21,472 nt of DNA from a virus (taxonomy: Duplodnaviria > Heunggongvirae > Uroviricota > Caudoviricetes). The position numbers and the translations under genes are program-made. Below are positions 18,750-21,472 of the stretch, piece by piece. The DNA lies in IMG/VR virus record IMGVR_UViG_2740892229_000021; one strand, written 5' to 3'. Every line of letters starts with the position of its first letter. Within the stretch, counting starts at the first letter, position 1. Under the pieces are notes generated by a model, which was not told the origin of the DNA, ran no database searches, and saw only the letters and a list, made by a program, of their open reading frames with translations.

Positions 18750-20944
18750 ATGAGCACAAAATTCAAAACCGTTATCACCACTGCCGGTGCAGCAAAGCTG
18801 GCAGCGGCAACCGCACCGGGAGGGCGGAAGGTCAACATTACCACGATGGCCGTCGGGGATGGCGGTGGTAAATTGCCTGTCCCGGATGCCGGACAGACCG
18901 GGCTTATCCACGAAGTCTGGCGACATGCGCTGAACAAAATCAGTCAGGACAAACGAAACAGTAATTATATTATCGCAGAGCTGGTTATTCCGCCGGAGGT
19001 GGGCGGTTTCTGGATGCGTGAGCTTGGCCTGTACGATGATGCGGGAACGCTAATTGCCGTGGCAAACATGGCCGAAAGTTATAAACCAGCTCTTGCCGAA
19101 GGCTCAGGGCGTTCGCAGACCTGCCGCATGGTCATCATCGTCAGCAGTGTGGCCTCAGTGGAGCTGACCATTGACACCACAACGGTGATGGCGACGCAGG
19201 ATTACGTTGATGACAAAATTGCAGAGCACGAACAGTCACGACGTCACCCGGACGCTTCGCTGACCGCAAAAGGTTTTACTCAGTTAAGCAGTGCGACCAA
19301 CAGCACGTCTGAAACACTGGCCGCAACGCCGAAAGCGGTAAAGGCCGCGTATGACCTTGCTAACGGGAAATATACTGCGCAGGATGCCACCACAGCGCGA
19401 AAAGGTCTTGTCCAGCTCAGTAGTGCCACCAACAGCACGTCTGAAACGCTCGCCGCAACACCAAAAGCGGTAAAAGCAGCATATGACCTGGCTAACGGGA
19501 AATATACCGCACAGGACGCCACCACAGCGCGAAAAGGCCTTGTCCAGCTCAGTAGTGCCACCAACAGCACGTCTGAAACGCTCGCCGCAACACCAAAANN
19601 NNNNNNNNTCAGCTGAGTAGCGCCATCAACAGCGATTCTGAAACGCTCGCCGCAACGCCGAAAGCGGTAAAGGCAGCATATGACCTTGCTAACGGGAAAT
19701 ATACCGCACAGGATGCCACCACGGCGCGAAAAGGTCTTGTCCAGCTCAGTAGCGCCACCAACAGCGATTCTGAAACGCTTGCGGCAACGCCAAAGGCGGT
19801 AAAGGTCGCGTATGACCTTGCTAACGGGAAATACACTGCACAGGATGCCACCACAGCGCGAAAAGGGCTTGTTCAGCTCAGTAGCGCCACCAACAGTGAT
19901 TCGGAAACGCTGGCCGCAACACCAAAAGCGGTGAAGTATGCCTATGACAATGCTGAAAAACGTCTTCAGAAAGATCAGAACGGTGCGGATATTCCTGATA
20001 AAAGATTATTCCTGCGCAATATTGGTGCAACAAATTCAACAACCATGTCTTTTAGTGGTGGTACAGGATGGTTCAGGCTGGCAACTGTAACCATGCCACA
20101 GGCCAGTTCCGTGGTTTACATAAGTCTGATTGGTGGTGCTGGATATAATGTTAACTCCCCTATGCAGGCTGGTATATCTGAACTTGTTCTTCGTGCGGGA
20201 AATGGAAATCCAAAAGGTCTTACTGGTGCGTTATGGCGACGGACATCGGTTGGGTTTACTAATTTTGCATGGGTGAATACATCCGGTGATACCTATGATG
20301 TTTATGTTGAAATAGGTAATTACGCCACAGGTGTTAATATTCAGTGGGATTATACCAGTAACGCCAGCGTAACGATTCATACATCACCATCTTATACAGC
20401 GAATAAACCAACAGGCCTGACAGATGGAACTGTATATGTAATTTACAGTTCGCACATTAAACCGACTGCTGCTGATGTTGGGGCGTTGTCATTATCTGGA
20501 GGTCAATTGAATGGTGCACTGGGCATCGGAACATCCAGTGCTCTTGGCGGTAACTCGATTGTTTTGGGTGATAATGACACGGGCTTTAAACAAAATGGCG
20601 ACGGTAATCTGGATGTTTATGCTAATAACGTCCATGTTATGCGCTTTGTCTCCGGTAGCATTCAAAGTAATAAAACCATAAATATTACGGGGCGTGTTAA
20701 TCCCTCGGATTACGGTAACTTTGATTCCCGCTATGTCCGGGATATCCGGCTTGGTGGTGCTGCCACATACAAACCAGCGAACAATGGCATGACATGGACA
20801 CATCAGGCACCGTCCGGGTGTGTATATTCTGGCATTATTGTTCAGGATACAGGCTCAAACTCTGCCGATAACATTGGTGGCGTATATTACAGACCGGTTC
20901 AGAAATACATTAACGGGACATGGTATAACGTGGCACAGGTATAA
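18750..20944 (+). CDS. H: Tail fibre protein H (conserved N-terminus, 44-aa tandem repeats, AT-rich C-terminal receptor-binding region); interrupted by an assembly gap
   Basis: ORF from 18750 (GAGGAA Shine-Dalgarno) runs into the N-run at 19599-19608 and resumes in another frame, open from 19610 to the stop at 20944. The frame shift is explained by the arbitrary gap length; the true length and repeat number are unresolved. Confidence 0.75.
19281..19940 (+). repeat. 132-bp (44-aa) tandem repeats inside the H coding region, at least 5 units
   Basis: Units begin at 19281, 19413, 19545 (truncated by the gap), 19610, 19742 and 19874 (partial). Unit consensus is QLSSATNS(T/D)SETLAATPKAVKAAYDLANGKYTAQDATTARKGLV; the copies before the gap carry NSTSE, those after carry NSDSE. 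Confidence 0.85.
19599..19608. other. Assembly gap (10 N) inside the tail-fibre repeat array
   Basis: Run of 10 n characters directly visible in the sequence, within the repeat array. Confidence 0.99.
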
Positions 20945-20947
20945 TTT

Positions 20948-21472
20948 ATGCAGCATTTGATAAATATAACAGCGGGTAATCCAAAAACGGTTGAACAATA
21001 TAAATTGACAAAGGGTTTTGATGTTGTCTGGTTTTTTTCAGAAGATGGTAAGAACTGGTACGAAGAACAAAAGTATTTTGCTGATGACACGATAAAAATA
21101 GCGTACGACAAAGATAATATTATCCGCTATGTGGAAAAGGATGTGACAGCTATCAGACCAGATGGATTAAGTGTTGTTGAAGTGCCAGATATTACTGCTA
21201 ACCGACGGGCGGACATTTCAGGGAACTGGATGTTTAAGGACGGCACAGTGATTAAACGAATTTATACGGCGGAGGAATTGCAGCAGCAGGCAGAAAATCG
21301 GAAAGCCAGACTTCTAGCAGATGCTGAATCCGTGATTTTGCCGCTGGAACGCGCGGTCAGGCTGAATATGGCAACAGATGAGGAACGCAGCCGACTGGAG
21401 GTTTGGGAACGCTATAGCGTTCTGGTCAGTCGTGTGGATCCTGCAAATCCTGAATGGCCGGAAATGCCGTAA
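20948..21472 (+). CDS. G: Tail fibre assembly chaperone (P2 gpG-like)
   Basis: 174-aa ORF immediately downstream of H; AT-rich 5' part and more GC-typical 3' part; its stop codon is the last codon of the window. Confidence 0.8.

Follow-up and report, generated by a model that had tools for sequence, protein, structure and literature searches.

Nucleotides (nt) 19930-21200 of the IMG/VR record IMGVR_UViG_2740892229_000021 (21,472 nt; this whole stretch is referred to as the window) comprise the distal half of the tail fibre gene H and the tail fibre assembly (Tfa) gene G of a P2-like (Peduovirus) prophage, with 97% nt identity to phage P2 from V into H (16324-19474). Our analysis makes it very probable that this interval is built from exchangeable foreign modules of ~42-44% GC, which seem to circulate in P2-like, Mu-like and P1-like temperate phages and in plasmid prophages of E. 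coli and its relatives, more distant forms being apparently present in the fibres of T-even and Felix-O1-like phages. A sequence-only reading of the window had proposed that a receptor-binding domain and its chaperone region were swapped in together as one cassette. The exchange as such and the linkage of the fibre tip to the N-terminal domain of G (partial Mantel r 0.80) are borne out by the comparisons described here; the single cassette is not, and the interval consists of at least four modules with separate histories, namely a linker, M1, M2, and the tip M3 together with G. The composition, the mosaic boundaries, the homologies and the tip/G-N linkage were all determined directly.

Composition and codon usage

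The maximum-likelihood analysis of GC change points on 15000-21472 placed the main one at 19918 (GC 0.568 before and 0.441 after it, log-likelihood gain 38.3) and a second, weaker one at 21267 (GC 0.425 to 0.544, gain 5.1); the sequence-only reading had set the limits at 19930 and 21200. The AT-richness that had been noticed by eye was thus recovered: the GC content of 19930-21200 is 0.423, whereas all segments of 1270 nt in the late region 7077-19930 have a mean of 0.570 (standard deviation 0.016, minimum 0.537). The AT-rich part of H had been described as its 3' third, but it actually amounts to nearly half of the protein (~47%, 337 of the 709 amino acids (aa) in L011, a gap-free near-twin contig from IMG/VR). 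These last 337 aa are indeed rich in Gly, Asn, Thr and Ser, as had been claimed, these four residues adding up to a fraction of 0.395, compared with 0.226 in the rest of the late proteins.

GC at the third codon position (GC3) is 0.358 in H 19931-20944, 0.370 in codons 1-100 of G and 0.480 in its codons 101-174, compared with 0.58-0.76 in the late genes. In the codon test, segments were recoded with the synonymous codon usage of the backbone and the predicted GC was compared with the observed one. The recoding predicted a higher GC in every segment: 0.552 vs. 0.442 observed for the 3' part of H (z -13.3), 0.487 vs. 0.387 for the N-terminal domain of G (G-N; z -6.6), 0.603 vs. 0.523 for its C-terminal domain (G-C; z -4.6), and 0.507 vs. 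0.396 for the linker module M0. The dip is therefore a genuine and mainly a codon-usage anomaly, which extends to the end of G, all of this gene being codon-atypical; the rise of GC in 3' G is an effect of amino-acid composition. The composition is far from uniform on calculation (GC3 0.36 in 3' H), and the statement that G becomes GC-typical towards its 3' end holds for the raw GC, which rises at ~21267, but not for the codon usage, which stays atypical to the end.

The same H-G dip was found in P2, P2_AC1, fiAA91-ss, P2_4E6b and a cryptic P2 remnant in the chromosome of E. coli E308, including cases in which the sequence itself is different, and the GC of the cassette is 0.433-0.439 in all carriers, independent of the GC of the flanks. 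Since all P2-like relatives examined share this profile, the dip is a family-wide mark of a common pool of low-GC modules and no sign of an event peculiar to this prophage. Taken as the signature of a swap, it correctly pointed to a foreign origin of the modules, but not to anything special in the history of the window. In L011 the low-GC tract continues beyond G into cargo of 30-35% GC.

Relatives and joint inheritance of the modules

P2 itself shows no detectable DNA similarity to ~19936-20890 and 75% identity in G. The stretch missing from P2 was found in unrelated phages, as the sequence-only reading had anticipated. The Mu-like Yersinia phage vB_YpM_5 carries 19967-20754 at 93.5% nt identity in S'v of an invertible segment adjoining the hin invertase, the IncY P1-like plasmid prophage pRHBSTW-00046_2 has a contiguous 89% match to 20033-21459 that makes up the distal end of a fibre gene (Sv) and its Tfa gene (U), the shared unit adjoining a recombinase and a second, inverted pair of Tfa gene and tail gene, and the 49-kb plasmid prophage p25POL-A carries 19967-21468 at 83%. 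P2_4E6b and similar phages match from 20459 onward only (95%), and the E308 remnant matches 19609-21472 at 96.8%. Collinearity with a single P2-like relative along the whole length of H and G exists merely in the trivial sense, within the same lineage (L011 with 99.6-99.9% and E308 with 96% identity), and does not extend to P2. At the protein level, fibres of T-even (gp37), Felix-O1-like and P1-like (SJ46) phages are 35-58% identical to the 3' part of H, which matched 30 different PHROG families, each on a different segment. A scan of genome contigs with the 62-aa tip yielded no more than three loci, all of them distant and belonging to E. albertii and Providencia.

The E308 remnant (L003 5021-11255) lies between yegS and yegQ and consists of partial J, I, H, G, partial D and ogrK. 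It retains an intact H-G pair with the same distal modules and is a possible reservoir of fibre modules.

The limits of the five modules (M0, M1, M2, M3 and G; Table 1) were derived from protein alignments of H and G with their relatives. M0 matches residues 141-175 of Mu S, i.e. the Sc/Sv junction, and follows the last Phage_fiber_2 repeat as it does in Mu S, where a single repeat of this type immediately precedes the junction. The last repeat unit is the presumed left recombination linker, and the homology to S'v of vB_YpM_5 begins within M0, at 19967.

M1 is 93% identical at the aa level to S'v of vB_YpM_5, 58% to the fibre of P1-like SJ46, ~44% to Felix-O1-like fibres and ~45% (35-49%) to T-even gp37, and protein alignment shows that P2, P2_AC1, P2_4E6b, fiAA91-ss and Mu S lack it. 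Neither Pfam nor a sequence-profile search of PDB gave a match to M1. The AlphaFold2 model is an all-beta sandwich of moderate confidence (predicted local distance difference test 72.9, predicted template modelling (TM) score 0.74) built on a shallow alignment, for which Foldseek reported the tailspike-like WceF (6tgf, E 5e-5, TM 0.62) as the best PDB match and gp37-type fibres as well as exopolysaccharide-depolymerase-type proteins as the best viral matches. The database homologues of M1 (P0001-P0068) are mostly partial proteins encoded on short contigs or at the ends of contigs, hence the shallow alignment and the moderate confidence of the model; this suggests that repeated fibre modules like M1 commonly break short-read assemblies. 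We speculate, with a small chance of being right, that M1 as modelled could be a second specificity determinant, for instance a lateral glycan-binding site; if so, H would join two independently exchangeable receptor-recognition modules, leading to a combinatorial host range.

M2 is common to P2_AC1 (92% nt identity over 20546-20754), vB_YpM_5, the IncY plasmid and P2_4E6b, and in part to P2; it shows a weak Pfam match to gp37_trimer and a match to S16 gp37 (6f45, E 1e-5). M3 is homologous to residues 423-503 of Mu S (5yvq_A, E 1e-19) and to the short fibre chain of phiTE (9cuy_c, E 7e-19). Comparison between tip classes delineates a variable core at 20755-20880 with conserved DNA islands on either side (20700-20730 and 20890-20945). 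G-N is 67-70% identical at the aa level to the N-domains of P2 (68%), Mu and YpM_5, and 91-99% identical to those in carriers of the M3 tip, while G-C is 79-84% identical to its counterparts in P2 and Mu. Near 21320 (alignment column 375), where a mosaic junction lies within G, the identity of G to P2_AC1 increases from 55-84% to 93% and that to E308 decreases from 99-100% to 93/88%.

The joint inheritance of the modules was followed in 80 IMG/VR loci selected by this type of G, 73 of which include the M1 part of H. M3 is 94-100% identical in all 80; of the 73, only 10 contain M1, and at least four states of M2 were distinguished in loci sharing tip and G, often on backbones with H N-domains that are 97-100% identical. 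Among 203 H-G pairs, which gave 154 unique tip+G combinations, tip class 2, that of the window, and G-N class 1 pair exclusively with each other (59 unique combinations, 81 loci), and G-N class 3 (P2/Mu type) serves three tip classes. The Mantel correlation of tip with G-N is 0.876, a value reached by none of 2000 permutations; the partial r is 0.80 for tip vs. G-N when G-C is controlled for, and 0.30 for tip vs. G-C when G-N is controlled for. By this correlative test, G has the variable N-domain matched to the tip and the conserved C-domain of a Tfa protein. It appears that only M3 and G-N are inherited together and that M1 and M2 are shuffled independently of them. The specificity of G-N is not strict, since class 3 serves three tip classes, and the specificity of the chaperone seems to be uneven between classes, with three tips for class 3 and one for class 1.

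Table 1. Features of H and G in the window, with the limits of the modules
Feature	Coordinates	Strand	Remarks
H (tail fibre gene)	18750-20944	+	follows gpI in the V-W-J-I-H-G late operon
H N-terminal baseplate-attachment domain	18750-19169	+	PF12571; P2 backbone, GC-typical
Phage_fiber_2 shaft repeat array, 132-bp (44-aa) units	19268-19930	+	Tandem Repeats Finder (TRF), PF03406
10-N assembly gap	19599-19608	.	run of N within the 132-bp repeats of H
M0, linker motif KYAYDNAEKRLQKDQNGADIPDKRLFLRNIG	19931-20026	+	AT-rich tract begins; change point 19918
M1, predicted beta-sandwich fibre module	20027-20485	+	apparently exchanged independently of the tip
M2, Gly-rich module ending in the conserved linker NFDSRYVRDIRLG	20486-20755	+	
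M3, C-terminal tip of H, tip class 2	20756-20944	+	presumed receptor-binding and chaperone-docking
G (tail fibre assembly/Tfa gene)	20948-21472	+	same strand, directly 3' of H
G N-terminal domain, class 1	20948-21247	+	apparently co-inherited with tip M3
G C-terminal helical domain	21248-21472	+	PF02413; conserved across Tfa proteins

Proposed mechanism of exchange and alternative explanations

The Mu S-U complex served as the model for the recombination mechanism, the binding of the receptor and the docking contacts. By this analogy, the modules would be swapped by homologous recombination at short conserved linkers, i.e. the last Phage_fiber_2 repeat with the NGADIPDK motif, KPTAADVGALSLSGG, NFDSRYVRDxRLG, RPVQKYINGTWYNV and the conserved C-domain of Tfa, and the partners in the exchange could be co-resident prophages, including cryptic remnants like that of E308. 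The N-domain of H and the repeats would stay part of the P2 backbone and anchor the fibre on the baseplate, and the tip M3 would bind the receptor, as presumed from its homology to Mu S. G-N is expected to dock on the tip, and the conserved C-domain may then drive trimer assembly from the C-terminus of the fibre. Such docking would explain why the tip and G-N travel together and M1 and M2 shuffle freely. This division of tasks within Tfa is taken from PMC9608196, which cites and summarises the Mu Tfa structure, with a variable N-domain that binds the fibre and a conserved C-domain that mediates trimerisation.

Several points weigh against this interpretation. Composition alone gives neither the direction nor the timing of the transfers, and the putative receptor role of tip class 2 is an extrapolation from the homology to Mu S. 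The tip and G-N are encoded only 3 nt apart, so that their linkage could partly reflect physical adjacency instead of a functional constraint; loci picked by similarity of G are a biased sample, and related sequences inflate Mantel statistics. The pairing is also many-to-one, as in the case of G-N class 3.

Since the Mu-like homologue of the stretch is part of an invertible segment, a relic or active segment of this kind was considered here too; it was rejected, as there is no crossover site at the left junction and no inverted Sv'/U' pair. Neither gix (with up to 3 mismatches) nor AAACCNNGGTTT (with up to 1 mismatch) has a match anywhere in the window, and downstream of G in L011 a DUF6602 nuclease-like gene and then a SIR2-like gene were found, with no inverted Tfa gene and no invertase; the fibre is therefore fixed, not switchable. 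In vB_YpM_5 (L004 4940-5080), both the shared sequence and a further copy of the QKNQNGADIPDK linker have a gix-like site (TTATCTAAAACCTCGGTTTGCAGGAA) upstream of them. In Mu S this linker coincides with gix, and in vB_YpM_5 it has thus been duplicated inside the invertible segment.

The contiguous match to the IncY P1-like plasmid (20033-21459, 89%), the match to the E308 remnant (19609-21472, 96.8%) and the one sharp GC change point at 19918 would all agree with a single recent swap of the entire 19930-21200 block from one donor, as a receptor-binding domain with its chaperone. We nevertheless regard such an event as unlikely, because relatives share different sub-segments of the block (vB_YpM_5 has only 19967-20754 at 93.5% and then another tip, P2_4E6b and similar phages match only from 20459 at 95%), M1 and M2 vary among the 80 loci although these share tip and G, and P2 shows the same dip with unrelated sequence. 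It is highly improbable that no horizontal transfer took place and that the AT-richness stems from the Gly/Asn/Thr/Ser/Lys-rich composition or from translational selection. Although the fraction of Gly, Asn, Thr and Ser is raised (0.395 vs. 0.226) and amino acids alone reduce the GC to be expected in G-N to 0.487 as well as accounting for the rise in G-C, the 3' part of H deviates strongly from its expected GC (0.442 vs. 0.552, z -13.3), its GC3 is 0.36 instead of 0.6-0.7, and the DNA identity to phages with unrelated backbones reaches 83-93%. Amino-acid composition was rejected by the codon test as the cause of the dip in 3' H and accepted only for the rise in 3' G.

An assembly chimera, with an AT-rich piece misjoined to the P2 backbone at the 10-N scaffold gap, deserves consideration in so far as only 320 nt separate the gap (19599-19608) from the change point downstream of it and the frames differ across the gap, splitting H into two apparent open reading frames (ORFs) in the window. 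However, 2.5 GC-typical repeats of the P2 type lie to the right of the gap, before the change point, and the junction recurs in the gap-free L011, where 1 of 1864 nt is mismatched, and in nine other IMG/VR contigs. L011 and the window have no mismatches in 17383-19543 and one in 19609-21472; before the gap, all 9 of their mismatches sit at 19544-19595, within the last 55 nt. In L011 H is a 709-aa ORF with 5 repeats, and a 77-nt fill of the gap in the window restores the frame and yields a single 753-aa ORF with 6 repeats. The break in the frame is therefore probably an assembly artefact and H presumably one gene; a chimera at the gap was rejected on the basis of L011 and the frame-restoring fill, and we assign it next to no probability. 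The left flank of the gap (19544-19598) belongs to a copy of the repeat that is extra compared with L011.

Our preferred interpretation remains that of independently exchangeable foreign modules. It represents a quantified case of a known rule, according to which P2-like prophages draw the distal fibre and its chaperone from a low-GC pool spanning unrelated types of phages, the tip and the N-domain of the chaperone being the sole parts that move jointly. For the prediction of host range, tip class 2 with G-N class 1 may be treated as one defined specificity type, and in fibre engineering the conserved linkers offer natural splice points.

Gene assignments, neighbouring loci and comparison with known systems

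H was identified as gpH by its N-terminal domain, a full-length match to Pfam PF12571 (Phage_tail_fib, E 2.2e-59, residues 1-151; GC 0.560), and by its place after gpI in the P2-like operon. The repeat array has a period of 132 on both sides of the gap according to TRF, PF03406 matches with E 1e-53 to 1e-55 and a GC of 0.55-0.56; in annotation, H should be treated as one gene despite the gap. G was assigned to the Tfa proteins by a match to PF02413 (Caudo_TAP, E 1.4e-33), by its similarity to the Mu Tfa protein U over the full length (5yvq_B, E 7.7e-83, residues 1-174, 73% identity) and by its position after the fibre gene on the same strand; its PHROG match is phrog_136 (E 3e-78). The stop codon of H (ending at 20944) is separated from the start of G (20948) by 3 nt, and the last bases of the window are the stop codon of G. 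G ends in ...PEMP and a stop (21467-21472; TAA, followed in L011 by a second TAA), one residue shorter than G of P2 and of most relatives, which end in ...PEMPQ.

Two loci lie outside the fibre genes. In L011 the AT-rich cargo (4302-7517, 3' of G, on the opposite strand, 30-35% GC) contains a gene for a DUF6602/NucC-like nuclease (PADLOC PD_DExK, E 2e-24) and one for a SIR2-like, ThsA-like protein (PADLOC PDC-S25, E 2e-124); judged by these matches, it looks like a defence-type insert at the Z/fun position of P2. In the window, an AT-rich ORF of 288 aa (5882-6748, GC 0.378, GC3 0.315) follows immediately after a large ORF of the size of a replication gene (3566-5866); it matches phrog_13198, a family of unknown function (E 4e-107), has no Pfam or PADLOC match and probably belongs to the accessory cargo that P2-like phages carry at their other variable locus.

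The system resembles gpH/gpG of P2 in its position in the V-W-J-I-H-G order, in the 97% nt identity through the N-domain of H and the first repeats, and in the GC dip in 3' H and 5' G. The inference of horizontal exchange with Mu, P1 and T-even fibres is also the same as that made for P2 H and G by Haggard-Ljungquist, Halling and Calendar in 1992, as cited in PMC9594776. It differs from P2 by 5-6 Phage_fiber_2 repeats instead of 2, by the presence of M1, by the lack of the Mu-Sv-like segment of P2, by ~19936-20890, which is unrelated at the DNA level, and by another tip class and another G-N class.

With the S/U and S'/U' genes of Mu (PDB 5YVQ) the window shares a G that is 73% identical to U, a linker in H resembling the Sc/Sv junction and a tip resembling S 423-503, and the Mu-like Yersinia phage has M0-M2 in S'v at 93.5% nt identity; unlike Mu, however, the window lacks a gix site, an inverted Sv'/U' pair and an invertase, and its tip core and G-N are of another class. 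The C segment of the P1 type is represented by IncY pRHBSTW-00046_2, in which M1-M2-M3-G (89%) correspond to the distal portion of a gene for a 1085-aa fibre and to its Tfa gene, with the same tip class and a G N-domain 91% identical to ours. There, the unit is part of an invertible segment, and the N-terminal two-thirds of the fibre are unrelated to P2 H. T-even gp37 (T2 and other Straboviridae) contains an internal segment that is 35-49% identical to M1, and M2 is weakly gp37-like; in T2, however, the segment resembling M1 begins around residue 822 of 1341, a long way from the tip, and the window has no adhesin of the gp38 type but a chaperone of the Tfa type (lambda gpK / Mu U). Altogether, the feature is an ordinary and already understood one, mosaicism of this kind having been known in P2 since 1992.

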